64,000 bases of DNA from Euryarchaeota archaeon UBA88 (GTDB taxonomy: Archaea > Thermoplasmatota > Poseidoniia > Poseidoniales > Poseidoniaceae), in the NCBI GenBank assembly GCA_002499545.1, contig DAME01000004.1:15577-79576 (forward strand), given 5' to 3'. The notes under the pieces were generated by a model, which was not told the DNA's origin, did no database searches, and saw only the letters and a list, made by a program, of their open reading frames with translations. Numbering within the stretch: position 1 is the stretch's first letter; each line of letters starts with the position of its first letter. Of the stretch, positions 34,798 through 53,438 are shown in pieces. Made by a program: the position numbers and the translations under genes.

Positions 34798-35276
34798 TCA
34801 ATGGAAAACTGAAACGCGACGAGGTGGCTGCTGCAACCGAATTAGGTTACATTTTCACATTCCTGCTCGGTGTTCTACTCCTCACAATGTTCAGCTTATG
34901 GGCGTATGAAATTGAAACTGCAACCCGTGAACGATGGAATGTGAATGCGATTCAGTCGAATTTGGACGACCTTGCTGCGGCAGTAGAGCGAGCGGATGAA
35001 GCAAGCCGGATTGGATCAATCGAATATGCGGAAAAAGTCACGTGGAGACTTACAGAAGCTGATGAAAGTCGCTTAACGCTCACCCTCACGGATACGACGA
35101 TTGAACTCTATCATGAAGGAGGGGACCTGGACACCAATGTTTCGATTTCTGGAACGGGAGCTGGAACTCACCAAGGAAGTGTTTTGCTTGCTGGAGCGAC
35201 ATCGATTTGGGTCGTCCACTCCGATGGCGTGACTTCGATTCAATACGACCGTCCGCAGTCTGAAAAACAAGCCTAG
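34794..35276 (+). CDS. Small pilin-like protein, 160 aa (GTG start)
   Basis: GTG 34794 overlaps the stop of the previous gene (GTGA) and is preceded by GGAGG plus 7 nt. The N-terminus KRDEVAAATELGYIFTFLLGVLLLTMFSLWAY has the same charged-then-hydrophobic architecture. The ORF-track start at 34716 lies inside the preceding gene. Confidence 0.45.
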   Translation: MINGKLKRDEVAAATELGYIFTFLLGVLLLTMFSLWAYEIETATRERWNVNAIQSNLDDLAAAVERADEASRIGSIEYAEKVTWRLTEADESRLTLTLTDTTIELYHEGGDLDTNVSISGTGAGTHQGSVLLAGATSIWVVHSDGVTSIQYDRPQSEKQA

Positions 35277-37795
35277 CGGCCCATGACCGCAGCGTGCACT
35301 TGAGCCTGAACTTCACGCATGCGAGACTTTGCTCCGAGTTCTCGGAAGACGGCAAGAGCGCGTTGAAGGTATTCCATTCGACGTGGCTTGTCCGGTGCAA
35401 CGCCACCTAGGCGTGACAGAAGTTCGCCCATTTGCATTCGTAAGTCGTTAGCCTCAGCGATGACCAAGGCTTCACGGTAATGCTCCATTGCATCCTCCGC
35501 ACGGCCCGCATCCTGCAGTACTTCCCCAAGTAGAATCGTTATCTCGACCAGTGAAAGTAAATCTCCTGCTTGGCCCATGGTTTCTAATGCGCTGGAATAG
35601 TGGTGAGAGGCGACATCTGCATCACCAACCTTCGCGTAATAGCGACCAAGAACTGCTTGAGCACGAGCGTGAAGCAAAACATCGTTTTCGTTATCTGTTC
35701 GCTCAAAAGCAGCTAATGCATGGTCACGAGCACGGTCAATTTCGCCGAGTTCAATAAAGGCCCGCGCCAGAGTAAGTTGTGTACTAATCAGCGAAATATC
35801 GTCGGATTGTTGGAGAATCTTTTCTACTTCTCCATAGGCTTCAAGCGCCTTATTGCGATCATTCTTTCGACGGAGCAAGTACCCCATGTTGTTGTATGAA
35901 CGGGCTGCACCACGCTCGTCGCCAAATTCAATGAATTTTTCAAGAGCATCCCGGTGCATAGAGAGAGCTTTGTCTGCATCCCCTTGCTTCAATGCGATGT
36001 CCGCTAACGCTGCCAACACTTCAGCACCGAGCTTTGTTGCCTTGCCTGATTCAAGGTTTTGAGTGGAACGCAAAATCTCTTCAGCTTCAGAAAATCGACC
36101 CAAGAGAACGAGTAACTCACCTTGCTGCTGAAGAATTTGTGCTTTAATCGATACTTGGAGAGAATCCAGTGCGAGGTTTTCCATGAGACCGAGGAGTTCC
36201 ATGTGACCCTGGACAATCAAATCTCTACCTTCACCTGCTATCAGCAATGCGGCATTTTCGTGCTCATCGCTGCAAATCAGGTGGTAGATATGCTCAATGA
36301 TAATTTCAGCATTCTTGGATTGCTTCTGGTACCAAGTGCTGCATTTGGAGTGAAACTCTTTCTTCGTTTTTTCATCCAAGCTCCGCAAGAGAAATTCCCG
36401 AATGAGGTCGTGCACATCGTATGTATCAGTATCTGCGTGGCGTGCTAATCCCTGTTCAACTAGCGAATCAAGCTCATCGGTGTCCAAACCCTGTTCGGCC
36501 AATGCCGGCAACATTACTGGTTCACGGTAAATTGAAAGTGCGGAAAGAACGCGTTTCTGTTCAGCAGATAACTTCGAAAAAATCTCAACTGTAACATAGT
36601 TTTCCAACGTTTCATGAAATGCGCCTGCAGATGCACCCCGATTAATTAATTCCAATACCAAAGGATGTCCACGGGAAAGTCCGTGGATGTGGAGCCACTG
36701 CTGATCACCGAGGTCCTCGAAACTGCTGAGGAGGTGACGTCCCGCATCAGAATCGAGACCGTCGAGCGGTAGCACAAGACTCGCAATTCGTCCTTCAGCG
36801 TCTTTTGCAGGCACAACGGGTTTGAATGAACGAGAGAAAATGACCAGCCCAATCTCTTCTTCACTTCCAAGCAAACCCAAGGTCATCGCTTGAAAGGTCT
36901 GGTGCAAGGTGACATCAGCCACTTTGTGGAAGTCATCGATGACGATGAGCGTAGGAGTACCTTCGAGTGCATCGATTAACAACCGAGCAGCGTCGGCAGG
37001 TTTCGGGACGGGAGTTGCTGCAAGATAATCTGCAAAACTCGAATCACCAATATTCGCAAGCCAATCTGCTACTGCTTCAAAAAACGAGCGTGAACCTTCC
37101 CAGTCTTGGCAGCGGTGATAGAGAAGATTACGACGATGCATGAAGCGCTCAATGAGTTTCGAAGCAATCGTTGTTTTCCCAATACCGGCAATACCGGGAA
37201 CCAGGAGCGTGGTTGCACGCGCCTCAATCAAATTCGCCATATTATCAAGTTCTTTTTCTCGACCATAGAAGTGACGAAGTCGTGGGAGGTCACCAAGAGA
37301 GGTGACTAACTGTTTCTCCACATGCTTGGACAAATCTCGCTCGACCAAGTCAGCAGTCAGGGTACGGGTGTCGAGGACGCAATTATCATCCATGTAGCGT
37401 ATCACGTCAACAGGCCGCATGGAAAACGGGAGATGTTCGTTGAGTTCACCCAGCGTTGAAGTGATGATGGAACCGTCACTCATGATACTGCGGAGATTAA
37501 ATTCTCGCAGACGGTTCCAAGTATCTTCTGACAGGTGAATTCCTGAATCAGTAAGGAAGTAGGCCTTGCGTTTGCGCGACACACCCGTGACGTGGGCTTG
37601 GCGTTCAATGAGAAGGCCTTGGTCTTTCAACCCTGCAATAGCACGTGGTACGTTGGAGCGAGCAATCGCCACGGCGTTTGCAATCCCCATTTGAGAGAGC
37701 GCAAAAGGGACTTCAACACTGTTTTTGAAATCCGAATAATCCAGCAAATGAAGTAAGATCCTCTCTTGAACTCCAGGTTTGGGCTGAACAATCAT
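35273..37795 (-). CDS. wHTH - STAND/AAA NTPase - TPR regulator (MalT/AfsR-like architecture)
   Basis: The N-terminus is winged-helix-like (SQMGIANAVAIARSNVPRAIAGLKDQGLLIE). Then FYGREKELDNM...LLVPGIAGIGKTTIASK (Walker A) and TLIVIDDFHKV (Walker B). The C-terminal ~300 aa carries several TPR-like repeats (for example AARSYNNMGYLLRRKNDRNKALEAY). AGGTAGGTG lies 7 nt upstream of the ATG. Confidence 0.7.
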   Translation of the reverse strand: MIVQPKPGVQERILLHLLDYSDFKNSVEVPFALSQMGIANAVAIARSNVPRAIAGLKDQGLLIERQAHVTGVSRKRKAYFLTDSGIHLSEDTWNRLREFNLRSIMSDGSIITSTLGELNEHLPFSMRPVDVIRYMDDNCVLDTRTLTADLVERDLSKHVEKQLVTSLGDLPRLRHFYGREKELDNMANLIEARATTLLVPGIAGIGKTTIASKLIERFMHRRNLLYHRCQDWEGSRSFFEAVADWLANIGDSSFADYLAATPVPKPADAARLLIDALEGTPTLIVIDDFHKVADVTLHQTFQAMTLGLLGSEEEIGLVIFSRSFKPVVPAKDAEGRIASLVLPLDGLDSDAGRHLLSSFEDLGDQQWLHIHGLSRGHPLVLELINRGASAGAFHETLENYVTVEIFSKLSAEQKRVLSALSIYREPVMLPALAEQGLDTDELDSLVEQGLARHADTDTYDVHDLIREFLLRSLDEKTKKEFHSKCSTWYQKQSKNAEIIIEHIYHLICSDEHENAALLIAGEGRDLIVQGHMELLGLMENLALDSLQVSIKAQILQQQGELLVLLGRFSEAEEILRSTQNLESGKATKLGAEVLAALADIALKQGDADKALSMHRDALEKFIEFGDERGAARSYNNMGYLLRRKNDRNKALEAYGEVEKILQQSDDISLISTQLTLARAFIELGEIDRARDHALAAFERTDNENDVLLHARAQAVLGRYYAKVGDADVASHHYSSALETMGQAGDLLSLVEITILLGEVLQDAGRAEDAMEHYREALVIAEANDLRMQMGELLSRLGGVAPDKPRRMEYLQRALAVFRELGAKSRMREVQAQVHAAVMGR

Positions 37796-37853
37796 GATTC
37801 CGCACCTACCTCAATACTCTTCAATACTTTCGCTGGATTGCGCTTTCCACACA

Positions 37854-40800
37854 TCACTGATCAGGAGTGTAATTTGGGTCTGGAACCCAAGTATTTGCTT
37901 CTGAATCCCATAGCCAGCCCGGATGTTGAGCGGTTTGAGCGGCAGGAGCTGCTGCTTGAACAGCAGCAGGTGTGCTCACAGTGGCCTTGGGTTGGGCTTG
38001 TGCCAGTGATTCTTGTCGAGCTTTGGCCCACGCATACGGGTCTGCAGTTTCTTGGCTTTCAGTAGCGAGAAGTTCTTCTTCAAAATCTTCGTATTCTACT
38101 TGGAGGAAGAACATTCCAACGCCAACCAGTGCCAAGATAGCCACGATTACACCAACGATGAGTAAAACGTTACTGCTTGAATCATCACCAGAACTGAGAC
38201 TCATTTGGAACAATGCATCGCCTGGCTCGTTTGGTGTAGAATACACTTGGTCATCCATTTCGAAGATCACATCGCGAACTCCAGTGATTCCAGAAAGTTG
38301 AGCACTGGTAATTTCCATCGACCAAGTCGAATCTGAATTGACACGAGTCTGGTTAATTCTAAAGCCGTTGATGTTATCGAAACGAGCTTCAATGAGACTG
38401 TCTGGAAGTCCCGTACCGGTAAACTTGGCCGGAGAGGAAGCAGTAATCGGACCTGAACCGTCACGGGAAACCGTGAAGGAAACTTCGATTACCAAAATAT
38501 TCACTTTGTAGGAATATGCAACTGAGTCGTACGCATCTCTGGCTTCAAACATTAATCCCATGAGTGACCACTCCGAGATAGAATCGGGCAAACCTGTGAC
38601 GAATGCCGGGTCGTATTTGGCAACACCGTTTGGAGAAAGTGTGATGAAATCAGCGTAATTGTCGTCGTCGAGGTTGGTCGCATCATCGAAGATGTCAAAG
38701 GTTAATCCATTGGTTTCTCCTTCACCACCGTCAGCGTCAGAAAAGAAATCCATGAGATCGATTGACTTACCACCATTGCATCGGTCAAACTTGGTTGGGT
38801 TTGAGTCACAGTACAGCGTAATGGTGTTACTCCAGCCAGTGGAATTAAAGACAGGAACGATGTTATCAGCATCTGTTGGATTGTCGATGGTGATACGAAT
38901 CCGTTCTTCGGTTGAAAAGTTGCTTCCATCCCATGCTTTAACCACAAGTTCGTATTGTTGGTCGTGGATGAGGTCAGACGTATCCCATGTTGTGTACCAT
39001 GCACCGTTTGGAGCAAAGTTTGTCACTGGATTTGGACCGTTGTTGACGACCGAGCCACTGGCGAGGTCAAAGATGTCAATTTCCACACGGGTCACGATTC
39101 CATCGTTGTCCAAAGCGACTCCCTGGATGATTTGGTCTTCTGCTGCACGTAGGACATCAGAGTTCAGTGGTTCTGAAAGCTGGACAAACGGAATTGCGTT
39201 ATCGGTATTGATTGTGAGGGTGCGGGATTCATAGTTGCAATCAGTCCATCCTGTCTTAACATCACAAAAGTCACTGTCTGCAGCCCATATTTTGAACGAG
39301 TATTCACCCGAAGGCAAATCTTGGAAGTTCCACTCATAGGCCCAAACAATGGAACCTGAAATGTCGAAGTTTGCGTTGTATCCGTTCGGGCCGTTGACAT
39401 CGAACCAAATGGACGTGATGTCGCTTCCCCAAGTCCCGGAATACGGGTCACTGGCAGTTCCGGTGAATGTCAGCTTACCGTTGTCGTGCAGGGAACCGTC
39501 GTTGGGTGTTTCAACCAGAATACTTGGAGCAACGAGGTTTAACTTGTATTTGCGAACTTCAATCGGCGAGTAGTCCAATCCATCATAAGAACGGACACGG
39601 AACGTCACGTCACCCTCACCTTCTGGATGAGCGGAAAGATCCCAGTTAAAACTCCATGTTTTGAACGGATGGTTTGATTTCGTGATTTCGCCGTTAGCGC
39701 CCGATGTGTCGACGGCTGAATACCAGTCGGTTGAACCCGGTGGCTGAACTTCAACTCGCTTGATGAGACCAAATTGGTTTTGATACGATACAATGTCAAG
39801 TGGGTATGGTCCAGAAATTCCATCCCATGAACTACCGGTCAACTGGACAGTTGTTGCAAAGGAAAAACCGTCGTTTTGTGATACTGTGACGCTCGGCTTG
39901 AGATTATCGAGATTGATTACATCGTCAATTGAACCACTCAGGACAAAGTCAAACTCTTTCTGACCTTTGCTGAATTTGAAAGCCTCGACGCTGTAGAATG
40001 GAAGCTCCCGGCCATTGAGGCAGTCTGCATCGTCTTCGTCAGTTGTGGCATCACCATCGTTATCGTAGCCATCTGAGCAGGTGTTTTCGGTGATGATAAT
40101 TGGATTCCCAGTACCGTCATTGGTTCCCGGTATCGGTACTGCAATGTCACCAACAAGATGATTCCAATTTCGGTCTAGAAGGAAATCCGAAGGTAGAGAA
40201 ACCTCCGGAGTAAAGCCGAATGCATCGGTTTGCATGGTGTACAATGGAAGACCAGTTGCATCCCGGATAATTACGGTAGCGTCGGCAACGTTACTGTTCT
40301 TAGCCTTCACTTGGTAACGCACAAGTTCACCTTCTCGAACTTGTGAACCCCAAGCAGAGTTTTGATTTTGAACGTGAATCTTAGACGAATCGAAATTTTG
40401 CAGGTCTGCGTATGAGAAGACGGTCGAATTTTCAACAACCTCGAGCGCCATTGGCATGAAAGCAGGTGGCATGATTGCAGTACTAGGAACAAGCAAGCAT
40501 TCATCCAAAACGAATGGGCATTCTGGTCCCAGCCAGCTCAGGTGAACAGGATACAGTTCCCCATCCCCTGGGTCTGGAATGTATTCAGATTGAACAATCA
40601 CTCGAGATTCAGTGATGTTGTACACTTGTGAAGCATTCGAGTAAGTGTTACCAGAAAAGTATCCAATTGATCCGTACTTACTTCCATAATTGTCATCGTA
40701 CAGTGAAATATTTGCACCAAAACCACCGACTTCAATCGTGTTTCGCTGCGCATTGACGATACTGCCTTTCATTCGAATTCCGTCACCGGCATTGTTAACG

Positions 40801-42221
40801 ATGGTGTTGTCGTAAATTGTTGCAGACGACATGAAGACGTGAACTGCTGGGCAAAGGAAGTCTCCGTCATACATTTGGGAGTTGCAGGTACCGGTGTTGT
40901 TCGAAATCTGATTGTTTGCAAGGTACAATCGTGCAGCAACTGGAGTGGGCACGTTCCAACCTTGGTCGTTGAAGTGGTACTCACCAATGAGCACGGCTTC
41001 TTTAGCAGTGTCTTGAATCGTGTTGTTTTCCGCAATGACGTCAGAGGTACCGTAAATCCACAGACCGTTCCAACCACCAATCGGTCCAATCACGTTGTTG
41101 TGAGCTTGAACCATCGAAGAACGAATACCGAAACCTGAACCTCCGCTTGCACCAGAAATCGTGTTTCGGCTTGCTTGAACAATAGCTCCATCGTACGCAG
41201 TGATGCCTGTGCCTTCGTCTGTAGTGATTTCATTGTCGTTAAGATACAGGGTGTGATTGATTGTACCGGTCACTTTGTGAGAGTTTGTGTCAATACCACT
41301 GCACTTCGTAACAACGGATGAGTTTGAAAATGATCCTGAGCTCTCCTTCATGAACAGGCCATAGGCATTGTCTTTCAAATCCAGATTTGTCATGTCGATA
41401 TAAGTTCCTTCCATGTAGATGAGAGAACGACCGCCGCCCTGTGTACCACATTCTGCTTGTGTATTACCGGTAAATTCTGAGTCACGAATTTGCATTGTCG
41501 CCAATATTCCAGCGCCAGCATTGTAAGCGAGAATCGCAGCAGCATCATAGCCGTTGCCGTCTGTACCCAAGACAAAAGTCGAATCGGTGATAATCGGGGC
41601 TGCAAAGTCGATTGCAAGAACGTTTGAAGTGTTAATATCTTGGAATGAAAGACCGGTGGCGGTGGTGGTTGAACCATCGAAAACGAGCACACCGTACTGC
41701 TTTCCTGACGATTGTGAAGTTTCGAATGGGATGCCGTATGCGTTTTCGAAGTGAGCGTACTGGATTGAAGTTACAGCTTGATTGATTGTTGAACGAATAA
41801 TCATACCGGAACCGCATGATGTATCAGCATTGTAATTTGGATTGTTGGTGTTGTTGGAATAGCAACGACCGATAATGCTCGTGTCGCTTGGGTCTGACCA
41901 AACGAATCGTGCTTGGTTTGAGGATGAACCTTGGCTTGATCCACAGGATGTATCACCAATACAGATTGCACCTTCAACGTCGATATAGGTTCCATAAGGA
42001 ATATTGACGGTCGTACCTGCATTCACGATGAGTTTAGCACCCTCTGCAACAACAACGTCGCCGTTGAGGTTCATTGTACCGGTCCAGGTTTCCGTACCGG
42101 TAATCGTACCCGCTTTGGTTTCGTTCACTGCAGAGACGGTTGGTATGGCCATAAGGCCGGTTAATGTCGATAACAGAAAAATTGTGACCAACGATATGCT
42201 TTTTGCCGAAGTACTGTTCAT
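37854..42221 (-). CDS. Giant surface protein (1455 aa): right-handed parallel beta-helix (PbH1/NosD-like) + Ig-like domains + C-terminal TM anchor
   Basis: Signal peptide SLVTIFLLSTLTGLMAIPTVSA. PbH1-type repeats (SRNTISGASGGSGFGIRS, AENNTIQDTAKEAVLIGE, IYDNTIVNNAGDGIRMKGS). A CSDGYDNDGDATTDEDDADC motif. Ig-like modules follow (FTGTASDPYSG...). TM helix LLIVGVIVAILALVGVGMFFL, with the tail ending HPGWLWDSEANTWVPDPNYTPDQ. ATG 42221 is preceded by GAGGTG (42230-42235). Confidence 0.75.
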   Translation of the reverse strand: MNSTSAKSISLVTIFLLSTLTGLMAIPTVSAVNETKAGTITGTETWTGTMNLNGDVVVAEGAKLIVNAGTTVNIPYGTYIDVEGAICIGDTSCGSSQGSSSNQARFVWSDPSDTSIIGRCYSNNTNNPNYNADTSCGSGMIIRSTINQAVTSIQYAHFENAYGIPFETSQSSGKQYGVLVFDGSTTTATGLSFQDINTSNVLAIDFAAPIITDSTFVLGTDGNGYDAAAILAYNAGAGILATMQIRDSEFTGNTQAECGTQGGGRSLIYMEGTYIDMTNLDLKDNAYGLFMKESSGSFSNSSVVTKCSGIDTNSHKVTGTINHTLYLNDNEITTDEGTGITAYDGAIVQASRNTISGASGGSGFGIRSSMVQAHNNVIGPIGGWNGLWIYGTSDVIAENNTIQDTAKEAVLIGEYHFNDQGWNVPTPVAARLYLANNQISNNTGTCNSQMYDGDFLCPAVHVFMSSATIYDNTIVNNAGDGIRMKGSIVNAQRNTIEVGGFGANISLYDDNYGSKYGSIGYFSGNTYSNASQVYNITESRVIVQSEYIPDPGDGELYPVHLSWLGPECPFVLDECLLVPSTAIMPPAFMPMALEVVENSTVFSYADLQNFDSSKIHVQNQNSAWGSQVREGELVRYQVKAKNSNVADATVIIRDATGLPLYTMQTDAFGFTPEVSLPSDFLLDRNWNHLVGDIAVPIPGTNDGTGNPIIITENTCSDGYDNDGDATTDEDDADCLNGRELPFYSVEAFKFSKGQKEFDFVLSGSIDDVINLDNLKPSVTVSQNDGFSFATTVQLTGSSWDGISGPYPLDIVSYQNQFGLIKRVEVQPPGSTDWYSAVDTSGANGEITKSNHPFKTWSFNWDLSAHPEGEGDVTFRVRSYDGLDYSPIEVRKYKLNLVAPSILVETPNDGSLHDNGKLTFTGTASDPYSGTWGSDITSIWFDVNGPNGYNANFDISGSIVWAYEWNFQDLPSGEYSFKIWAADSDFCDVKTGWTDCNYESRTLTINTDNAIPFVQLSEPLNSDVLRAAEDQIIQGVALDNDGIVTRVEIDIFDLASGSVVNNGPNPVTNFAPNGAWYTTWDTSDLIHDQQYELVVKAWDGSNFSTEERIRITIDNPTDADNIVPVFNSTGWSNTITLYCDSNPTKFDRCNGGKSIDLMDFFSDADGGEGETNGLTFDIFDDATNLDDDNYADFITLSPNGVAKYDPAFVTGLPDSISEWSLMGLMFEARDAYDSVAYSYKVNILVIEVSFTVSRDGSGPITASSPAKFTGTGLPDSLIEARFDNINGFRINQTRVNSDSTWSMEITSAQLSGITGVRDVIFEMDDQVYSTPNEPGDALFQMSLSSGDDSSSNVLLIVGVIVAILALVGVGMFFLQVEYEDFEEELLATESQETADPYAWAKARQESLAQAQPKATVSTPAAVQAAAPAAQTAQHPGWLWDSEANTWVPDPNYTPDQ

Positions 42222-42258
42222 AGATTGTACACCTCTTAGTTTGTCCATCACAATGACG

Positions 42259-42268
42259 GATATAATAC
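42259..42268 (-). promoter_or_regulatory. Candidate archaeal TATA box for the beta-helix surface protein gene
   Basis: The minus strand reads GTATTATATC about 40-46 nt upstream of ATG 42221. A transcription start ~25 nt downstream would leave a short leader containing the GAGGTG SD. Confidence 0.3.
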
Positions 42269-42391
42269 TGCGCCTCATATGTCGGCCTTGAAGTATCAAA
42301 TAACGATAAATGTATCAATAATATCTCCCTTAGAGTATCAGAACGGGCTATTCGTATCGTATTTCCGTGCAGATTTAGGCCTTCGAAATCG

Positions 42392-43612: not shown

Positions 43613-43618
43613 CCAAGG

Positions 43619-43624
43619 CACCTC
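43619..43624 (-). promoter_or_regulatory. Shine-Dalgarno site GAGGTG for the subtilisin gene
   Basis: GAGGTG lies 6 nt upstream of ATG 43612. The same hexamer recurs upstream of several other starts in the window (42230-42235; AGGTGG at 59620-59625). Confidence 0.5.
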
Positions 43625-43678
43625 AATACTGCTACCAACTGCCGCTCAGCAGTTCAGGGTATAATGTATTGTACTTCA

Positions 43679-46600
43679 TCAGAATCGAGTTGTGTTACGT
43701 CCATTACGTGCGAGTTTAACACCGCCATAGACAACCAAGAATCCGAGAAGTAGAATTCCAAATGTCAGCAGAGGAGAATCATCACTTTCGACGAAAACCT
43801 CGTACTTGATTGAAAAGTCGATGACCTTTTCTCCATCTTCACCGATTTGTTGGGTGACATAATCACTTTCCTCACCGACAACTTCGACCTTGACTTCGTA
43901 ACGGACTGTGGCAGATGCATCTTCCGCACTGATAGCAAAGACGACTTGTTCGGTACTCTTTGCACCGATACTGACCGTCTGGCTACCCAAATCAATATCC
44001 GTTCCTTGTATACTTGCAGATACAACAAGGTTCGAAGTGCTGAGATATCCATCATTGTACACCGGAATCACAAGGTCGCCAGCTTCTCCATCTCGCTTGT
44101 CGGAAAGGAGAATGATTTGAGATTGGTCAACCGATAATCGAATGTCGGACTTTGTGAATTCAACGTCGAACGACTCACTTGTCACGCCATCTTCACTGGT
44201 TACTGTAACAGTTAGCGTAGGTGTTCCAGTGAAGTTCTCTGCAGCATAAGCGGTGAACAGTTGCGATCGTACACCGTCCTTTGGAATGGTGACATTTGAG
44301 ATTGGTGGAGTGACTTCCCATCCATCAGGTATGTTATCAGCAAGCGTTATCGAAAATGTATCGTCGCCGTTACCCGTGTTCGTAAGCGTAAATCCAAACG
44401 TGTTGCTTCCGCCGTCAGCGATTCCAACTTCAGACTCCACATCGGAAATTTCGAGACCGTGTTGCTTTGGAACCTGAACAGTGAAGGCAAGTTCGCTTGA
44501 TGCAACACCGTCAGAGTTCAAAATGAGCTTCAACTTGTGTGCTTCTTCCAAGTGCCAAACTTCTGATTGGTTGGCAACCAGTACACGAACTCGAAGAACC
44601 ATCGAATCTTGGACGCTGTCATCAGCGCTATTGTTTCCAATTCCGAGTGTGACATCCTGACTGCTTTCAAATCCAGTACCGTTCCAGAACTCAACAGACC
44701 AATCTGCTTCATCAGGAGAGGACAGAACCTGACCGGACATGGTGAACAGATCAGAAACTTCTGTTCCGTCATACTTGATGTCAACACTGAACTCGACAGC
44801 ATCGTAGCTTTCACCACTTTCAACAGCCATGAAGTCGAGCATGGAACCATTGACGAGCGTCGCATTGACAACCGTATCACTCACCATCGACAAAGATGTG
44901 TCGGAGTTGATTGAACGACTGTATGATAGATTCACGGCAATTCGACCTTCAGCGATGTTGGCCACCGATCCACCAATGTAATCCATTTCAAGCAGTAAAT
45001 CATGTTGCAATGTAGTGAAAGATGAATCCATCGTAACTTCTTGTGAAGGCAGTAGAATGCTAATTTCACCATCGGCATCTACTGGCATATCCCATTCGAT
45101 GCCCTCTCCAATTCCAAACGTGACTGAAACGGTCTCGTTCAGATAGGATGCGCCATCACTTGCGGAACCAGCATGATGCTGAGCCACAGGGTATTCCGAG
45201 GTCCATACTGTGGTCAAATCAACCCAACCACCGAGGGACATCTCGAGGTCCAAAATAGCACCTTCTGAGATACTTGCATCGAGAAGACCGACCGCAACAC
45301 CTCCGCCATTGACACTAGGATTGGCTTGGGTTACCACGACAATCCACTCACCTGGTGAAATAACTGCAGACCAAGAGAGTTGGTCGTTTTCAAAGGTAGA
45401 GTCGACAGAAATCGCCTCACCGGACATTCCCGAAGAAGGATACAGAACAACACTGGCACCGTCGAGGCGCATTGCATCATTGATATCGGTAACATTACCC
45501 GAGACCGGAACGTTACCTGCCATCATTTCCAAGTCGTGAGAAACTGGTTCTGAGTAGACTGGATAAGCGCTTGAGTTCGAAATGTTGTACACTTCAGTAG
45601 CAAACCCTTCCTTTGAGACTGAGACTTGGTATTCATCTTGAATTGGCACAAACAAGGTCCAAACACCGTATTCATCGGTCGTTACAATAGACTCGAATTC
45701 AGTATTATTCATTCCAATGACTTGAACGGTCGTGTTCGCGATACCTTCAGTTCCGTCAGGAATATCGTCAGCATCAAGGTCCCAGAATACTTTACCACCA
45801 ATTTCAACTTCAAGTTCGGCTGTTTGCAATGGTAGAACGAGTGTTCCGTTGTCTGCATCGTCGGTTGTGAACGGCGAACCTGATGTATCGAGCGACCACT
45901 GCTTTTGTGGATTCGATTCATTCAAGAACAAACTCCAGTTTCCTGGCATCAATTGATCGGTGATGTTACCTGATGTGTCACTCTTTGCGAGCGTCACATT
46001 GCCGAGTCCGTCATGGCTCACTGCGGTCACTCGAATACTCGACATGTTAGCTTCAGTCCCGTATTCTTGTAGCTGGAATTCGACTGTTACAACGTCCACA
46101 GTTCGTAGAGGAACACCGGTACGTAGCGACGAATCTGCACCGACTGTGAGAGAATATCGAAGGGTTTCGGTGCTCTCGTTGTCAGCGATGAACGGTGCCA
46201 CGATTGCAATCCAATCGCCTGCAGAGACGTATGCGGAGAACGAACCGTTCTCATCAGATTCAATGTTAAACCACTCATCGGCAACATCGTTACGAAGCAA
46301 GAATTGCTTGGCAATGCCGTCACCTGAGTTATTGGTTAGAACCCCCGTCACGAGGTATTCATTGCGCATTGGAACCGCAATTGGTTCGTCATAGGTTTCC
46401 AAACCAATCAAAATTGGGTCTTGAGCAGAGGTCGTGATGAGAGGTGAATCTGTAGCATTTTCATCAGTAGCAGTTGTTGCGTTGAACACTATGTTGTAAA
46501 TTCCTGGCTCAAGAGTTAGCGTAAGAATTCCGTCAGACGTGTAGTCATCAGCAGTTACATTCACTTGGCTGCCGTGTGTATTGAGAGGAACTAAACTGAA

Positions 46601-49600
46601 AGCAGGTGATACCTTGGTTCCGTTTTCGAAGGCTCCGTCGTCACCCGAATCCATGAACACATTGAGCGTAACGTCCGTGAACGCTGGGTTCACGAACAGT
46701 TCGACAGGCGTAGGCATTCCATCGGTTTCTACTAAGATGTTGTAGTCCTCAACCGTTGTCGAATTCAAGACAGCGTCTTCAACTGTGAAGTCCCAGGCAC
46801 CTTCTTGCAGACTAAACATGAACATTCCAGAATCAGTGATCGTAGTGCGAAGTTCAAGTCCATCTGAATTGGTTGCAACGACTGTTTGCGCGTCGAAACC
46901 TGGCACTATACCTTCCCACAATGATTCGTTGTCATAGAGATACACAAATCCATTGGTACTCACACTGGGTTCAAGGTATTGCAATCCCGAATCAAATTCA
47001 GGCAGTCCTTCGAGAACGATGACCTGTCCAGTGACCCATTGTGAGGTTGTACTGAATGCCGACATGTGGAAGGTGTTTCCACTCGGAAGTTGAATGCTGT
47101 AATTACCGTTCGAATCAGTGGTTGCTGGGAAATGAAGTTCAGAGGATGTGAAGTCTATTGTTAGACTCGGAACCGGAACGCTTTCCATTAGTTTCAGGTC
47201 TTCAGACTTTTCAGACCATTGGGAATACGTTTCGTCGAGACCACTGTTCATGACCCGAATCGTACCGTTAACCCAAGTTGCAATTGCATAGCTGCTGGTC
47301 ATCGAGAGGTCTTCCTGTGCTAATGAGAAGGAATCAAACAGGATGTAATCTTCAGCAGTTTGATCAGATATCGTGTAGTCTCCCATTGGAAGTTCGATTT
47401 CAACACCACCAGTTTCATTGGATACCGCATCGATTGCAGGGAACGTTGGGTCGTCATTGGTGAACGTCACAGTGCGCATGGAAATGTTCGCATACGGTTC
47501 CTGCGTGAGTGGATCAACCGGTGAAGCCAGTTGGAGGGTCACATCATGCATTTCAGGAACGCTCATCAATAATGAGAAATTTTCAGACGTATCACGGACG
47601 ATCAGTGTTTGGTTCAACTCATACCATCCATCGCCGTCGATGTCGACTCGATAGAAGTATTCGCCTGATGCGAGAGGCCCGAAACTAAAGTTCCCTTCCT
47701 CGTCAGTGGTTTCAAACATTGATTGTTCTGTACCGAGTGCAATATCGACCAATTCAATTTTCTGACCTACGAATGGTATTTCGAAAAAGTCGTCGAGTGT
47801 ATCTTGGAAGATAGAACCAGGCATCGTCATAGCGAGGTCATAGGTTGGTTCGACACCAACATTCACCGGATCTGGTAGAAGTACTTCCTTACCGTTCTCG
47901 AGTTGAGCGATCATGTGGTATATACCAGGTGTAAGACCCGTGATGTAGAACGAACCAGGTTGGACCATTGGCCCAGAGAAAGAACCAACGCCGACAAACA
48001 GTCCGGTTCCGTTGAATGTCCCGGTACCTGCGTATGAACCCGAGGCTTCGAAAGAGTCACCTTCGTGCTCAGTTACAAGCGTCGAAACTCCATCGGATGT
48101 GAGCCGTCCATTTGCTTCGATTACACCGTCCAGCAAGTACATCATTTCATCAGCATCTTGCAGACAAAGCGTTTCATTCTCCGGCATCGGTGCAGTACTG
48201 TTATCGAGACAGGATGCGACCGTATCTTGTCCAACCCATGAGGCGATCAAGGTACCCTTGCCGCTCCAAGTACCGTTGCTGGTGTAAACACGCTGATCAC
48301 CGATGGAGCGAGTGAATGTTCCGGTGAAGTCCCGGACAAATGCCACTCCGTCGCTGTCGAATGTTCCGTTCTCGGTGAACGTTACTTCACCAGAACCCTG
48401 TAAGATTCTGCTATCGGTAGAGGTGAACGAACCGTTGGTTGTTGTCAAAGTATAGTTCTCAGTCATCGACCAAATGTTGCGTAGAATGAAATCTGTAGAG
48501 ATAAGAGCATCACCGTCAAACGATTCATCGCCTGACCAAGTGACAAGTCCAGATACGCCGCTGCTTTGCACGGCGATATCGAAGGTAGAAGTCACTGGTT
48601 CAAGGCGGTCAGCCTGTGCACCAGAAACATTGTACTGAGTTTCACCAAGCCAGCTCATGTTAGCAACTTCACCGAGAATAGCGGTGATGTCATTGATTTG
48701 GCGGTCTTCATTGGTAGGACTCAAAATGTCTCCAAGAATTTGTTCAATGTAGCCTTGAGTTTGGCCGTTTGAGCGCAGACTGTCTTGAGCGACTGTTGGG
48801 TCGTAAACACCCGCAAAGGCGCTCACGCGGATGCTACCAGCAGGTGCATCAAACGACCAGTGTCCGTTCTCATCTGAATCGACCATTCCGATTGGAATCC
48901 AATAGGTATCAGGATCCAAATCTTCGCTGTCTTCGCCAGAGAACGCGTCACGCTCGATGAGCAGTCGAACATTTGGTAGTCCCTCGCCGTTATCGCTCAT
49001 GGTAACTTGACCGCTGATTTCAGCTCCCGAGTAGTACTTCAGAATCTTTACGTCCGTGTTTGCGTTCCAAAGGTTGGCTTGTTGTTCCTGCATCGTCACG
49101 GATGAATTTGCTTCAGCACTGTACCAGTTAGCGATTACAAAGTGATTGGTCATTGCACCCGGGAGTGCCGGAGCACGAGCCAAGACGCTTCCTGGACTAC
49201 CGTAATCACCAGCATACTGAGCCTGTCCAGCAATCCATCGAAGAGTGGATGAGGGTTGTGGATTGGATGAACCTGAATCGATTCCGAGGGTCGATGCGCC
49301 GTATCCAACATAGTTTCGGGCAAGCATGGTGTCAAAGAACTCAGGGTTGTGGTCGACGCGGATATCTTGAACCTGAAGTGGCTCAACGTCGGCGCCTGAT
49401 TGCTGATTGAGATAATCTTGCGTAATGGCCGCATCGACTTCCTCTCGAGTCATTTCATCTTGGAATTCACCGCGAGTTGTTTCGTAAACCTCAGTCATGT
49501 ACGTTGCCATGTCTTGACCGCTGAGAATTGTAGGTGCTCCGAAGATACCGGTTGGTTGGCCGCTGTTGTAGTTGTAGTCCGCAGTGTTACGACCTGCCTT

Positions 49601-52600
49601 AGGGTACAAGCGGTTGTCGACAGCAAAGTATCGGATTTCGTGATTTCGGTCAATCATATCGCCTGGAGCCCCGTCATAGTTTTGAACGCTGTAGATTTCG
49701 AGCTGCATCAATTCATGGTACATGTCGAAGATTTCATCGCTTGTCAAAGCGTTATCAAAGAGTTGTACCGTTAGAGCAAGGCGAGCATTCTTTCGATGAA
49801 TGTTGGTTGCCACGGAATCATATTCATCAACGAGGTCAGCAGTGTACCAGTAGTCACCGATAATGTAGTGAGTCGTATCGAGTGTGGTGTCTTGACCAGA
49901 TCGAATGTTGTTGGTGAAGGTTCGGTCTGCTTCGGACTTCTCAGACCATTCGCCGTCAACACAGCTAGCAGAAAGGGAGTCGGTGCACACAATAGGCTCG
50001 CCACCCTTGTAGATTCTCCAGTACGGTGTCGAATCGTCATATATTCCGTCGACTTGGTGGTGCCCTACCGCCATTACGACATCAGAATTGGTTTCGATAA
50101 CTGCATAACTGCTCGCTTCAATCAAGTCGATCATTTGCTCGTTGTTGGTGTTCATGGTGATGTCGTTGAACAATTCCATCTGCGATGATTCGACCAAGAA
50201 ATTGTCGACGACGCCTGAGAAACCGTTCGTGAATTGTTCTGTGCCGGTTTTCTCAGCCATGTACGAGATGTCACCTTGAGCAAGTTGCCAGATAAACATC
50301 GAAGTCAAATCTTCCTGAGTGCGTGCGAGTAGCATGTTACCAGTTGCAGGAATTCCAGATTGGAAGTTGTCTGAGACTGACGGGTGTTCACCACTTTCAA
50401 GAGCAGCGAATCCATAGTCCCACCACGATACGAAAGCGGGTTTGTCAGAGTACTGCATGAGACAGGCAGCTGTAGCCGCATCCCAGATACCATCAACATC
50501 GATACAGGATGCTTGGTCAGTAATGCCGTCATGGAGTACGTCTTGTTCTGACAGCCATTGATGCGCATAGTTCCAACCTTGTGATTCGAAGGTTGAGCCG
50601 AAGTATCCGAGGTAACTGTTACCGGCATAGGCAGCATCATCGAGAAGTGAAAATCCACCAATTTCCCAACGCATGATGTCAGGGATGATGTTGTAGATGG
50701 TCTCATCAAGGTTTGATTCGTCGTTGCTTCGTGGCATTGCAGCATCCAGTCCATATGTGGCTTGCTGACCAAAGAGCATGACCATAATCAAAAGAATTGC
50801 AGAGAACGATGGTGTGCGCCAAACGGCAATTCGCGCTCCGCGAATACGGTCTTCTGGTGCACGTACACCCAGTTTCTTCCACGTGCGTACCAAACCATCC
50901 CAGTTCGCCCACTTCCACAGCGATACGATACCCCAAGCGCCAAGTACGGCGATTGCTGGAGTTGCGTTGAAACTGAAACGAGCGGCGGTCCACGCCATGA
51001 ATGAGGCAGTGATAATCCACACACCGAAAACAAGTTTGATCTGCTTTCTTTCACGCAGTGCTGACCAAAGACAAAGGACACCCATGATCAGCGAAAGGAG
51101 GAACGTGATCGGACCAAACTCCGCAAACATTCGCCCACGAGGAGGGGCATTTGCTTCCGCAACAGTTCCAAAAATCTTGGTTTTGGTGAAGTAACCGCTA
51201 CCAGTGAACAGAACATCCCACGCATTGGAGAGGTTTGCTTGCTTGAGCAGCCAAAGAACCGTAAAGAAAAGCAAACCTGCTCCAGCAAGAACACCAAGAA
51301 TTAGCAACCATGGCTTATCTCGGAATCCAGTTGTCACGAAGCTGATAGCAATCGTGAAGAAGAAGATAAACAAGAATGGTTGAAGTCCAGTTCCGTCAAG
51401 AACCAAGTCGATTTGCGGATGGGCAAACCACGGTAGAGCCATCATGAGGTTCACGCTTAACATGGTGAGGAACAAGACATTCAACGTGGTCGAATCACGG
51501 CGACGGAACATGTTCAGAGCCACTTGGGCAGCGTATGCTAAGAACAGAATCGATGGACCTACAACGAATCCTTTCCATCCCAGAGAAACTACACCGAACG
51601 ATACACCTGCGAGCACTGCCGCTGCCATTGCAGCCTGACGTTGCTGTACTACAGCGGAGAAAGATGCGAGGAACGAACGCAGTGACGGCGAGGATTGCTT
51701 GAGCAAGCGTTCTGAGCCAGCGTATTTGACTGCGCGCAACCAAAACAGGAATCCGAGAGAGATGAACAGCATGATGAATGCATCGTGGTCAGCTAATCCC
51801 CACGTGGTGTGACTCACGTGAGCAGGCATGAATGCAATGAGCCAAGCAGCAACAACTGCGGCTTTTTCGTTGATGTGTTCCTTGGCGATGAGAGCGACTG
51901 GATAAATGGTCAAAGCTCCGTAAATTGCAGGCAGGGATAGGATAGCCCACCAAACTGCATCGCCGTTGTCAAAGAACGGTCCAAGAAGCGTTGCAAGGAT
52001 TGCAATCGACCAGGTGAACAACGGAGGTCGAGGGTTGATACCGCCGATTGGATAGTAGCGATCAGCATCGTAAATCATGTGAGCATTGTTCGCTAGGATA
52101 TAGTCGACGACTCGCTTCATGTACCAGGGGTCAGAACCTCCTGTCATGTCCCACTCGCCTGTTCCAGTCGAGTTCATGGAGGGCACGATGTACCACTGCA
52201 TGCGGATGATAAGACCGAACATGAAAGCAAGACCAATCATGATACCTGCCCAGTGTTGATTCCAAAACAGACGTGCACCGGAGTACTCGTGGTCATCTCG
52301 GTTCGACCATCCGCCCCAGCGATCGTGTGTTGAGATTGAATAGATTCCAACACCGAGGAAGAACGTGACGCCAACCCAAATCAGGCTGCCCCAGTTTCCT
52401 TCGAGCATCGAAGAAGTGAACAATCCAGCATCGTACCACGTCGAAACGAGGTAAAGCATCCACATTGAGCCAAGCGTCATGGCACGAGTATGCCAACGCT
52501 CAGCAAACATTCCTGCAACGATAAGCGAGACCATGCCAGTGAACAATGCAGGCCAAAAACCGAAGTAACCGTGGTATCCTTCAATCACTGAAACTCCAAG

Positions 52601-53362
52601 TTGGTCCGCTTCAGAGACTTGGCCAAAGTGCCAAAGGCTTGCGGATTGAGCAAAAATCCAAACAAATAGAGCTGCTTGAAGAGGTAGGTTGTGCTTGTTC
52701 ATCAAGGAACCTTTTTGATCGTTTAGGAAACTAAACCATCCAGACTCGCTTGCAGGAGTGATTCGTCCACGAGCAAATGTTGCCAACAATGTTCCGATTA
52801 AGAGGAAGATGACGACGTATGAAAAGAACACATAACCAACGGCTTGGTTGCGCAAGTTGATGGTTGATGCATAGCTCACCTGTTCGCCGTCTGCAGCGAC
52901 ATTGATGATGTTTGGAAGAGTACCAAGAGCCTCAGTTGCAGCAACGATACCGACGTTGATACCCATTGTGGCGAAGACCAAAATGGTTGCAAACTCATAG
53001 CGCCCACGTGATGACATGAAGTGAACTCCGAACATCACTACAGCGAACTGCAATGCAGTGAATGCACTGTAGTCAAGCCCAGTGATAATTTGTGAACCAA
53101 TCAAGGCAAAGACCAATGTAGAGAGGGAGAGAGTGGTCGGTGACAAGGAATTGGGAGAGGAACGAGTGAGCACCATTGGAGCGAGCCCCAACAGGCCGGC
53201 AATCCCGACGATGAACATCGGTGCCAAGTTCTCAGTGTTCAACCCGTCTTCGATGCCGACGAGTTGGATGGCTGCGAGTGCTAGCAAGACTGCAAGTGGG
53301 GCAATAAGCCATCCAAGAGCAGGTGCCGGCGCAGTGCTTTGTGTGCCAGTTTTTTTATCCAT
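43679..53362 (-). CDS. aglB: Giant AglB/STT3-type oligosaccharyltransferase (3227 aa) with extra N-terminal TM bundle, repeat-rich external extension and C-terminal TM anchor
   Basis: The WWDYG motif (FVSWWDYGFAALESGEHP) is at 50411-50425. The first-loop motif GGSDPWYMKRVVDY is at about 52100-52150. GLADHDAF lies in a later loop. About ten predicted TM helices precede the STT3 core. After WWDYG come ~2240 aa with many CarboxypepD_reg-like modules (for example ISGQVTMSDNGEGLPNVRLLIE...DENGHWSFDAPAGSIRVSA, TTDEEGNFSFGPLASGEYFYRV, TTDSNGNYSIQLPSGNTFHMSA) and a CARDB-like module (FGFTLTNTGNGDDTFSITL). The terminal TM helix is LLTFGILLLGFLVVYGGV. ATG 53362 is preceded by GAGGG and an A-run. The ORF-track start at 53419 is GTG. 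Confidence 0.85.
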   Translation of the reverse strand: MDKKTGTQSTAPAPALGWLIAPLAVLLALAAIQLVGIEDGLNTENLAPMFIVGIAGLLGLAPMVLTRSSPNSLSPTTLSLSTLVFALIGSQIITGLDYSAFTALQFAVVMFGVHFMSSRGRYEFATILVFATMGINVGIVAATEALGTLPNIINVAADGEQVSYASTINLRNQAVGYVFFSYVVIFLLIGTLLATFARGRITPASESGWFSFLNDQKGSLMNKHNLPLQAALFVWIFAQSASLWHFGQVSEADQLGVSVIEGYHGYFGFWPALFTGMVSLIVAGMFAERWHTRAMTLGSMWMLYLVSTWYDAGLFTSSMLEGNWGSLIWVGVTFFLGVGIYSISTHDRWGGWSNRDDHEYSGARLFWNQHWAGIMIGLAFMFGLIIRMQWYIVPSMNSTGTGEWDMTGGSDPWYMKRVVDYILANNAHMIYDADRYYPIGGINPRPPLFTWSIAILATLLGPFFDNGDAVWWAILSLPAIYGALTIYPVALIAKEHINEKAAVVAAWLIAFMPAHVSHTTWGLADHDAFIMLFISLGFLFWLRAVKYAGSERLLKQSSPSLRSFLASFSAVVQQRQAAMAAAVLAGVSFGVVSLGWKGFVVGPSILFLAYAAQVALNMFRRRDSTTLNVLFLTMLSVNLMMALPWFAHPQIDLVLDGTGLQPFLFIFFFTIAISFVTTGFRDKPWLLILGVLAGAGLLFFTVLWLLKQANLSNAWDVLFTGSGYFTKTKIFGTVAEANAPPRGRMFAEFGPITFLLSLIMGVLCLWSALRERKQIKLVFGVWIITASFMAWTAARFSFNATPAIAVLGAWGIVSLWKWANWDGLVRTWKKLGVRAPEDRIRGARIAVWRTPSFSAILLIMVMLFGQQATYGLDAAMPRSNDESNLDETIYNIIPDIMRWEIGGFSLLDDAAYAGNSYLGYFGSTFESQGWNYAHQWLSEQDVLHDGITDQASCIDVDGIWDAATAACLMQYSDKPAFVSWWDYGFAALESGEHPSVSDNFQSGIPATGNMLLARTQEDLTSMFIWQLAQGDISYMAEKTGTEQFTNGFSGVVDNFLVESSQMELFNDITMNTNNEQMIDLIEASSYAVIETNSDVVMAVGHHQVDGIYDDSTPYWRIYKGGEPIVCTDSLSASCVDGEWSEKSEADRTFTNNIRSGQDTTLDTTHYIIGDYWYTADLVDEYDSVATNIHRKNARLALTVQLFDNALTSDEIFDMYHELMQLEIYSVQNYDGAPGDMIDRNHEIRYFAVDNRLYPKAGRNTADYNYNSGQPTGIFGAPTILSGQDMATYMTEVYETTRGEFQDEMTREEVDAAITQDYLNQQSGADVEPLQVQDIRVDHNPEFFDTMLARNYVGYGASTLGIDSGSSNPQPSSTLRWIAGQAQYAGDYGSPGSVLARAPALPGAMTNHFVIANWYSAEANSSVTMQEQQANLWNANTDVKILKYYSGAEISGQVTMSDNGEGLPNVRLLIERDAFSGEDSEDLDPDTYWIPIGMVDSDENGHWSFDAPAGSIRVSAFAGVYDPTVAQDSLRSNGQTQGYIEQILGDILSPTNEDRQINDITAILGEVANMSWLGETQYNVSGAQADRLEPVTSTFDIAVQSSGVSGLVTWSGDESFDGDALISTDFILRNIWSMTENYTLTTTNGSFTSTDSRILQGSGEVTFTENGTFDSDGVAFVRDFTGTFTRSIGDQRVYTSNGTWSGKGTLIASWVGQDTVASCLDNSTAPMPENETLCLQDADEMMYLLDGVIEANGRLTSDGVSTLVTEHEGDSFEASGSYAGTGTFNGTGLFVGVGSFSGPMVQPGSFYITGLTPGIYHMIAQLENGKEVLLPDPVNVGVEPTYDLAMTMPGSIFQDTLDDFFEIPFVGQKIELVDIALGTEQSMFETTDEEGNFSFGPLASGEYFYRVDIDGDGWYELNQTLIVRDTSENFSLLMSVPEMHDVTLQLASPVDPLTQEPYANISMRTVTFTNDDPTFPAIDAVSNETGGVEIELPMGDYTISDQTAEDYILFDSFSLAQEDLSMTSSYAIATWVNGTIRVMNSGLDETYSQWSEKSEDLKLMESVPVPSLTIDFTSSELHFPATTDSNGNYSIQLPSGNTFHMSAFSTTSQWVTGQVIVLEGLPEFDSGLQYLEPSVSTNGFVYLYDNESLWEGIVPGFDAQTVVATNSDGLELRTTITDSGMFMFSLQEGAWDFTVEDAVLNSTTVEDYNILVETDGMPTPVELFVNPAFTDVTLNVFMDSGDDGAFENGTKVSPAFSLVPLNTHGSQVNVTADDYTSDGILTLTLEPGIYNIVFNATTATDENATDSPLITTSAQDPILIGLETYDEPIAVPMRNEYLVTGVLTNNSGDGIAKQFLLRNDVADEWFNIESDENGSFSAYVSAGDWIAIVAPFIADNESTETLRYSLTVGADSSLRTGVPLRTVDVVTVEFQLQEYGTEANMSSIRVTAVSHDGLGNVTLAKSDTSGNITDQLMPGNWSLFLNESNPQKQWSLDTSGSPFTTDDADNGTLVLPLQTAELEVEIGGKVFWDLDADDIPDGTEGIANTTVQVIGMNNTEFESIVTTDEYGVWTLFVPIQDEYQVSVSKEGFATEVYNISNSSAYPVYSEPVSHDLEMMAGNVPVSGNVTDINDAMRLDGASVVLYPSSGMSGEAISVDSTFENDQLSWSAVISPGEWIVVVTQANPSVNGGGVAVGLLDASISEGAILDLEMSLGGWVDLTTVWTSEYPVAQHHAGSASDGASYLNETVSVTFGIGEGIEWDMPVDADGEISILLPSQEVTMDSSFTTLQHDLLLEMDYIGGSVANIAEGRIAVNLSYSRSINSDTSLSMVSDTVVNATLVNGSMLDFMAVESGESYDAVEFSVDIKYDGTEVSDLFTMSGQVLSSPDEADWSVEFWNGTGFESSQDVTLGIGNNSADDSVQDSMVLRVRVLVANQSEVWHLEEAHKLKLILNSDGVASSELAFTVQVPKQHGLEISDVESEVGIADGGSNTFGFTLTNTGNGDDTFSITLADNIPDGWEVTPPISNVTIPKDGVRSQLFTAYAAENFTGTPTLTVTVTSEDGVTSESFDVEFTKSDIRLSVDQSQIILLSDKRDGEAGDLVIPVYNDGYLSTSNLVVSASIQGTDIDLGSQTVSIGAKSTEQVVFAISAEDASATVRYEVKVEVVGEESDYVTQQIGEDGEKVIDFSIKYEVFVESDDSPLLTFGILLLGFLVVYGGVKLARNGRNTTRF

Positions 53363-53429
53363 TTTTTTTCCCTCAAAGGTGTTTACGCGACAGCAGCAAG
53401 GCTGAAGCGTCTTCGCCACTGAAGACCCT

Positions 53430-53438
53430 CTTTTAATG
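53430..53438 (-). promoter_or_regulatory. Candidate TATA box upstream of aglB
   Basis: The minus strand reads CATTAAAAG. A transcription start ~25 nt downstream would fall after GTG 53419, which favours ATG 53362 as the start. A second A/T box (minus-strand TTTAAAAA) lies at about 53481-53488. Confidence 0.25.

Follow-up and report, generated by a model that had tools for sequence, protein, structure and literature searches.

A cluster of predicted cell envelope genes is evident in Euryarchaeota archaeon UBA88 (assembly GCA_002499545.1), a member of Marine Group IIa (MGIIa; Poseidoniaceae, order Poseidoniales). The sequence analysed here is a 64-kb stretch of contig DAME01000004.1 (positions 15,577-79,576 of the forward strand), hereafter the window, and all coordinates are window positions. 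Open reading frame (ORF) calling placed four consecutive genes on the minus strand at 35273-53362. In order of transcription these encode a giant AglB/STT3 oligosaccharyltransferase (OST; 43679-53362, 3227 aa from its ATG, the ORF being open to a GTG at 53419), a membrane-anchored S8 subtilase (42392-43621, 409 aa from a GTG or 406 aa from an ATG at 43612), a beta-helix/Ig-like type-I membrane surface protein (37854-42221, 1455 aa from its ATG, the ORF being open to a TTG at 42299) and a PH0952-type regulator with a predicted winged helix-turn-helix (wHTH), a STAND core and a TPR sensor (35273-37795, 840 aa). A Shine-Dalgarno-like GAGG(T/G) lies 7-10 nt 5' of each ATG. With these starts, the gaps of 57, 170 and 58 bp given in an initial annotation of the window were reproduced, and the four protein identities proposed there (OST, anchored S8 protease, beta-helix/Ig-like surface protein and regulator-like NTPase) were confirmed by Pfam and NCBIfam domains and by topology. 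That annotation had proposed a self-contained module that makes, glycosylates, proteolytically matures and regulates one envelope structure. In place of one dedicated module, we suggest a conserved envelope locus comprising two or more transcription units, a reading that we hold with about equal measures of confidence and doubt.

Conservation of the gene order bears directly on both proposals. From a scan of GTDB with a single genome for each species, 80 loci with S8 identities of 52-72% were retrieved, their labels being almost without exception Poseidoniales or the broader marine Euryarchaeota/Thermoplasmatota. Order and strand were kept in 80/80 loci, with all four genes present in 64 and the other 16 cut by contig ends. 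A search of 50%-identity representatives extended this to more divergent S8 orthologues (41-47% identity), including those of the Thalassarchaeaceae (Marine Group IIb, MGIIb), all of which lay in the arrangement purD-AglB-S8-surface protein-STAND, so that the order holds in MGIIb down to 41% S8 identity. A loss of the gene order in relatives, which the initial annotation named as evidence against its module, was thus not observed. The gene purD (53515-54861 in the window), a co-oriented fifth gene directly upstream of aglB that the initial annotation did not include, was found upstream in every locus. Among the best matches listed no cluster lay outside the Poseidoniales, which does not in itself show its absence there. 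Two cluster contigs (L049 and L065) belong to metagenome-assembled genomes (MAGs) labelled as bacterial (Salipiger bermudensis and an uncultured Rhodobiaceae) and are probably misbinned.

A more complicated picture emerges from the surrounding genes. In the published MGIIb MAG SIMO Bin 19-2, the order is carS, purD, aglB, S8, an unannotated 4.2-kb gene, a TPR/arCOG03047 gene, MBL, a giant ORF and, further on, dnaJ and arcS (PMC9723583, Table S3). This order mirrors that of the window, and in this comparison carS, purD, the MBL hydrolase, the giant ORF, DnaJ and ArcS are as syntenic as the cluster itself. Since the whole neighbourhood is syntenic, order conservation alone is no proof of a functional module, and with unrelated neighbours equally conserved in place, a functional link among the four genes is something that we infer. 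The four genes could thus be syntenic without sharing a function, as parts of a rigidly syntenic region in which AglB would be a housekeeping OST, the subtilase a nutritional ectoprotease for high-molecular-weight protein, the surface protein a carbohydrate-binding or carbohydrate-degrading protein or an adhesin, and the regulator a MalT-like sensor of a substrate-derived small molecule. We regard this as a possible account, if on the doubtful side: the neighbourhood keeps its genes between MGIIa and MGIIb, as this explanation would have it, but the content downstream of the cluster varies between the clades while the four genes never separate. The sole change adjoining the cluster concerns a trio of pilin-like genes, which all MGIIa-type loci carry and which is lacking in MGIIb, where the MBL gene directly follows the regulator.

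Candidate regulatory elements were found in the gap between the S8 and surface-protein genes. Here, three direct TGATAC boxes on the minus strand (42335-42340, 42312-42317 and 42293-42298), spaced by 23 and 19 bp, form a candidate operator, and a TATA-like TATTATAT (42260-42267, minus strand) within a conserved GCGCAGTATTATAT marks the presumed promoter of the surface-protein gene. Intergenic regions were compared across approximately 70-86 orthologous loci. The S8-surface protein gap has a median length of 187 bp and holds 2-5 direct TGATAY boxes, with 3.04 boxes per gap in the forward direction versus 0.20 expected and 0.04 on the reverse strand, and with the spacings of 19 bp and 23 bp recurring 98 and 38 times, respectively. 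Paired boxes occur nowhere else in the window (2 matches versus 0.2 expected), and in 1.58 Mb of related loci 143/172 paired boxes fall in this gap, the others lying mostly in the equivalent position on contigs that end short of the surface-protein gene. The array is present in the corresponding gaps of loci L001-L080, L090 and L091. The sequence GCAGTRTTATAT was found in 65/80 orthologous gaps, mostly 42-44 nt 5' of the surface-protein ATG, and the distance from the last box to the GCGCAGTATTATAT element is 32-33 bp in 64/65 loci. On the other side of the surface-protein gene, the gap to the regulator is short or overlapping (median 21.5 bp, minimum -17) and lacks a TATA-like motif in 70/72 loci, which suggests co-transcription of the two genes. 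Because the array specifically precedes the surface-protein gene and the regulator follows closely, it is plausible, judging from sequence, that the regulator acts on the surface-protein gene.

The regulator itself is predicted to have the domains that such a role would call on. Its AAA_16/nSTAND core has intact Walker A (GIAGIGKT at residue 201) and Walker B (LIVIDD at 283) motifs, and is followed by a TPR sensor at aa ~540-840 (TPR_12, 72 bits versus 30.1; MalT-like TPR, 43 bits versus a cut-off of 45). The N-terminal wHTH (aa ~1-90) is predicted from a sub-threshold match to HTH_Crp_2 (20.9 bits versus 27); residues 1-80 are 84-93% conserved, the wHTH being almost invariant from MGIIa to MGIIb, and the regulator is the most conserved among the four proteins. 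The closest match in the PDB is P. horikoshii PH0952 (6MFV; E 2.6e-23 over aa 170-484), described as a MalT/APAF1-like STAND protein that has an ArsR-like effector at its N-terminus and a TPR sensor, and as a putative transcription factor (PMC6468293). By its sequence, the regulator is a member of the PH0952/MalT-like STAND clade of predicted transcription factors. It shares with PH0952, and more distantly with MalT, the NOD and its Walker A and B motifs, the arm and the TPR sensor. The predicted winged-helix effector is N-terminal as in PH0952, whereas the DNA-binding domain of MalT is C-terminal. While PH0952 itself has no known inducer, target or operator, the regulator described here can be paired with a candidate operator and with a partner gene conserved beside it. 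Activators of the MalT type form multimers on repeated boxes 5' of their promoters. The TGATAY array would resemble such boxes, and a multimerising STAND factor of the PH0952/MalT type, encoded in what appears to be the same operon, is a natural candidate to bind it.

A second set of promoter-like elements was evident upstream of aglB, where the promoter region and 5' leader (53363-53440, minus strand) are kept from MGIIa to MGIIb. A conserved TATA-like ATTAAAAGAGG (TTAAAA at 53431-53436) lies ~70 nt 5' of the aglB ATG, and the leader contains a conserved GTGGCnAA segment, a hairpin CAGC-N6-GCTG at 53391-53404 and a GAGGG 5' of the ATG. The conserved TATA-like element and leader suggest that aglB would have a promoter of its own, with purD outside the unit. 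The leader could act as a cis-regulatory RNA or as a protein-binding palindrome. As evidence for a structured RNA, the hairpin is too small, consisting of 4 bp with two compensatory changes (in L004 and L024) and an RNAalifold covariation term of -0.12, and a palindrome in the DNA is equally possible. The gap between aglB and S8 has a median of 57 bp among the orthologous loci and often holds a hairpin, with 32% of gaps below a z-score of -1.5; as a conserved structure, this hairpin has little statistical backing (mean z -1.15). In the window, it is represented by AACTGC-N6-GCAGTT at 43637-43654 (minus strand), just 3' of the aglB stop, and hairpins of unrelated sequence occupy the same place in many orthologous loci. 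With aglB and the surface-protein gene each apparently provided with a conserved promoter of its own, the four genes probably do not form one operon, and a single operon is disfavoured by the promoter-like elements before both genes.

Published expression data are available from the metatranscriptome of SIMO Bin 19-2, with two informative samples (FN66 and FN71; PMC9723583, Table S3). Normalised transcript coverage in FN66/FN71 was 0.35/0.38 for aglB, 0.18/0.16 for S8, 0.16/0.18 for the surface-protein gene and 0.19/0.18 for the regulator, compared to 0/0.08 for purD and 0.01/0.05 for MBL on the flanks (PMC9723583), so that all four genes are transcribed at similar levels and above their flanks. 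In the DESeq2 comparison of samples with the genus active, a joint increase is seen for aglB (+2.05, adjusted p 0.06) and for the surface-protein gene (+1.91, p 0.08), and S8 is not listed (PMC9723583). Similar expression of all four genes would agree with these transcript data, which are too thin to establish co-regulation. The moderate level of the surface-protein transcript, equal to that of the regulator, argues against a very abundant structural protein; such a level, unlike that of a major structural envelope protein, is also in keeping with synteny without shared function. The same holds for the subtilase, as peptidases including a subtilase are reported among the highly transcribed MGII genes, fitting a role in protein degradation (PMC9723583).

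For the locus of at least two units, we suggest the following scenario. In the first unit, aglB would be transcribed from its own promoter and leader, probably together with S8, 57 bp downstream, giving rise to an intact OST fused to a long, sequon-dense extracellular extension and to a subtilase with its active site facing outward. In the second, the surface protein and the PH0952-type regulator would be expressed as a bicistronic unit, with 2-5 direct TGATAY boxes, lying along one face of the DNA, ahead of its promoter. An inducer would bind the TPR sensor of the regulator, upon which the STAND core would exchange ADP for ATP and multimerise, and the N-terminal winged helices would bind the box array cooperatively, activating the promoter. 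The regulator would thereby control the surface protein as well as itself, making the surface-protein/regulator operon probably autoregulated. The protease may trim the surface protein, a coupling that we read solely from its location and topology.

Several observations weigh against this scenario. TGATAY boxes are absent in four MGIIb loci (L081-L084, representing two gene arrangements) despite an identical recognition helix of the regulator, and the GC-rich locus L087, again with an identical recognition helix, has degenerate rather than proper TGATAY boxes. The hairpin in the aglB-S8 gap, together with an ATTATA-like motif in close relatives, allows for a separate S8 transcript, and the flanking genes share the synteny of the cluster. 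The joint regulation implied by the initial annotation agrees with the similar levels of the four genes above the flanks and with the common rise of aglB and the surface-protein gene, but not with the regulator, which stayed flat (-0.05) while its presumed target rose, in a comparison of low power (PMC9723583).

AglB is unusual in its size, with orthologues ranging from 2744 to 3257 aa. The STT3 domain is readily recognised (PF02516, 61.2 bits versus a Pfam cut-off of 24.5), alongside CarboxypepD_reg and Ig-like domains, and the catalytic motifs are present as DPWY at 411, DHD, the second acidic motif, at 525 and WWDYG at 980. Approximately eight additional N-terminal transmembrane (TM) helices (aa 1-390) precede the STT3 core (aa ~393-1040, nt 50243-52186), which is followed by an extracellular beta-sandwich extension of ~2150 aa (nt 43775-50242) and a second TM anchor at aa 3197-3215. 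In an alignment of the core with A. fulgidus AglB (3WAJ), GG-DPWY, the D-H acidic motif and WWDYG are matched, while the region 3' of WWDYG, relevant to the DK/MI motif of the sequon-binding pocket, aligns poorly to solved AglBs and gives a weak AglB_core match (20 bits versus a cut-off of 27). Compared to this canonical archaeal enzyme (AglB-L, 875 residues), the multi-spanning STT3 architecture, the DPWY-type first acidic loop, the second acidic motif and WWDYG are shared, whereas the protein described here is ~3.7 times longer owing to the ~8 extra N-terminal TM helices, the sequon-rich extension and the second anchor. Its 50 sequons represent the highest enrichment among the window proteins when controlled for composition (z +5.8); the orthologues show a median of 50 (z 3.9 to 10.3), and ~15 sites are kept in at least 85% of the sequences, almost all within the extracellular extension. 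From its motifs, the enzyme looks catalytically competent and is probably the general N-glycosylating OST of the cell. AglB shows the catalytic motifs that a general OST would have, and no sequence present is denser in sequons than its own extension. A dedication of the enzyme, or of the protease, to the neighbouring protein is unsupported. Given the long sequon-enriched extension ending in a second TM anchor, the giant AglB may itself be a major glycosylated surface component.

The S8 protease (PF00082, 128.8 bits versus a Pfam cut-off of 21.8) has the Asp-His-Ser triad and the oxyanion Asn (D120, H155, N253 and S333) invariant among 13 orthologues, and lacks an I9 propeptide. A single TM helix (aa ~59-85) after an RRRK stretch separates a cytoplasmic N-terminus (aa 1-58, nt 43448-43621) from an extracellular catalytic domain (aa 111-391), indicating a type-II ectoprotease tethered by its N-terminus. 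The cytoplasmic segment, with the motif LPEPxDxRILSAIDPSxVGFQxxWRxEVTGWAP, is conserved to the same degree as the catalytic domain. Paralogs, and the nearest non-orthologous relatives (P0422, P0436 and P0141, without the conserved N-terminus), lie in unrelated gene contexts. The tie to the locus is confined to the orthologue that has the conserved cytoplasmic segment, which speaks against synteny without shared function. The best NCBIfam match, mycosin TIGR03921 (109.7 bits), remains below its cut-off of 278.75. Mycosins are membrane-anchored subtilases dedicated to type VII secretion, with a C-terminal anchor. The likeness to mycosin (MycP) lies in a membrane-tethered S8 protease without the classical I9 propeptide, encoded in a conserved envelope locus; here, however, an N-terminal anchor is seen in an archaeal host, with no secretion-system genes nearby. 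An MGII paralog of the anchored subtilase, fused to a phosphodiesterase/metalloenzyme domain (L088, 10001-11968), is encoded among housekeeping genes and is unrelated to the cluster.

The surface protein (Beta_helix PF13229, 42.7 bits versus a Pfam cut-off of 25.9, plus Big_7) consists of a signal peptide (aa 1-31), a right-handed beta-helix (aa ~31-545, nt 40587-42131), an acidic Cys/Asp repeat, Ig/FN3-like domains, a TM helix (aa 1352-1370) and an 85-aa cytoplasmic tail (nt 37857-38111). The AF2 model of the beta-helix shows all-beta coils (pLDDT 89.9, pTM 0.89), with a pLDDT of ~80 for the Ig-like region. A sequence search against solved structures gave no match. Foldseek retrieved the PfbA adhesin, PL6 alginate lyases, the AlgE4 epimerase and phage tailspike depolymerases for the beta-helix, and generic FN3 arrays for the Ig-like region. 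The carbohydrate-related or adhesive role envisaged under mere synteny draws on these beta-helix neighbours, but they are weak matches of a generic kind (E 1e-5 to 1e-3): the right-handed beta-helix fold is shared at a TM-score of at most 0.38 and ~10% identity, and no common catalytic motif was identified. With fold-level likeness only and no catalytic motif, neither an enzymatic nor an adhesin role can be assigned to the surface protein. A role as the major S-layer protein is likewise not supported, on account of a transcript level equal to that of the regulator, the missing match to solved structures and the generic Foldseek folds. At aa 737-761, the protein has one acidic double-disulfide repeat, resembling the repeats of a neighbouring 1946-aa protein (see below).

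The description of this protein as rich in sequons did not hold up beyond what its composition predicts, with 16 sequons versus 18.8 expected from shuffles (z -0.7) and an orthologue median of 12 (z -0.85). Since some sequon sites are positionally conserved, it is probably N-glycosylated by AglB, as many other exported proteins would be. The self-contained module of the initial annotation is therefore retained in part: the order-wide linkage, the plausible regulator-target link and the similar transcript levels fit with it, but aglB and the surface-protein gene appear to have separate promoters, the neighbours are syntenic as well, and the surface protein is not sequon-enriched. A precedent for linking an archaeal OST, a surface-protein-processing peptidase and glycoprotein substrates is given by archaeosortase A, PGF-CTERM proteins and the AglB of TIGR04154 (by the name of the NCBIfam model, archaeosortase-A-associated AglB). 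In contrast, the peptidase here is a serine subtilase, and the surface protein has no PGF motif at its C-terminus, where it keeps the TM helix and 85-aa tail instead. AglB scored 179.5 bits against TIGR04154, below the cut-off of 450, which places it outside the archaeosortase-A-associated subfamily. We therefore rejected an archaeosortase/PGF-CTERM system.

The tail of the surface protein, with the peptide HPGWLWDSEANTWVPDPNY, deserves separate consideration. The motifs FFxVEYE, DPYAWAK and HPGWLWDxxxNxWVPDP are kept in MGIIa and MGIIb, while the linker between them is variable and of low complexity. The last of these motifs follows a P/A/Q-rich linker, and the same design is seen in a second giant surface protein encoded 13 kb away (19150-24573, minus strand, 1807 aa), the tail of which (19150-19450) ends in PAGWTQHQWEHFGWQY. 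The shared tail may be a cytoplasmic docking motif for giant type-I surface proteins. One could also envisage signalling across the envelope, with the surface protein as a sensor and its tail, the cytoplasmic N-terminus of S8, or both keeping the regulator at the membrane through its TPR sensor, by analogy with MalK sequestering MalT. Cleavage or shedding of the ectodomain by the protease, or an outside ligand, would then free the regulator to multimerise on the TGATAY boxes and feed back on the synthesis of the surface protein. The retention of the tail motifs despite the variable linker, the conservation of the 58-aa N-terminus of S8 to the level of its catalytic domain and the position of the regulator as the best conserved of the four proteins would all fit such a scheme, as would the common ability of TPR domains to bind peptide termini. 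However, the similar tail of the 1807-aa protein indicates that the tail may serve general anchoring or sorting, and we consider trans-envelope signalling unlikely. If true, it would provide the first inducer, partner and operator for the orphan PH0952 family and a new kind of outside-in signalling in archaea.

The combination of a STAND NTPase with a protease also brings to mind anti-virus defence of the Avs-like or IetAS-like type, since STAND NTPases with TPR sensors, as well as subtilase partners, occur in defence systems. PADLOC returned weak generic matches to a subtilase, IetS (E 1.4e-5) and TPR models as well as the candidate models PDC-S27 and PDC-S73 (E 2-5e-4), but no defence-specific model was matched. 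The window further encodes the housekeeping proteins RNase HII, GluRS, DnaJ and an ArcS-like protein and has a uniform GC content, placing the locus in the core genome, at the same place in every relative, rather than in a variable island. The predicted N-terminal DNA-binding domain and the membership in the PH0952 transcription factor clade, together with the extracellular position of the protease domain, add to these arguments. A defence system is thus highly improbable, and we rejected it on the missing specific PADLOC match and the core-genome location.

In the surface ocean, Marine Group II (MGII) ranks as one of the most abundant archaeal groups. To our knowledge, none of its members has been cultured, and their cell envelope is wholly uncharacterised. 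The locus supplies several handles on this envelope: a giant sequon-decorated OST, a tethered protease, a surface protein with a conserved tail and a transcription factor of the PH0952 family, for which a candidate operator (the TGATAY boxes) and a candidate target make the question of its target directly testable. Were the four genes merely neighbours, the main residual interest would lie in the giant AglB and the promoter architecture. The initial annotation did not recognise the linkage of an OST with a dedicated protease and a STAND regulator as one already described, and searches of the open literature found no account of the cluster, of the giant MGII AglB or of the targets of PH0952-like factors. 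Each of the proteins is of a known family, and the genes have already been annotated piecemeal in published MAGs (PMC9723583).

The flanks of the cluster are formed by carS, a CARDB protein, pilin-like genes, the MBL hydrolase and two more giant surface proteins, and an Rfam scan of the window gave tRNA-Met as the sole match. The CDP-archaeol synthase and the archaeal pilins identify the host as archaeal. The trio between the regulator and the MBL hydrolase (31505-35276, plus strand) consists of three convergent genes encoding proteins of 361 aa, 736 aa (DUF7289) and 186 aa with class-III-signal/pilin-like N-termini. The neighbouring 1946-aa protein (24645-30485, minus strand) has thrombospondin-type-3-like acidic repeats and MPDGWE motifs; these repeats, like the one at aa 737-761 of the surface protein, are probably calcium-binding surface modules.

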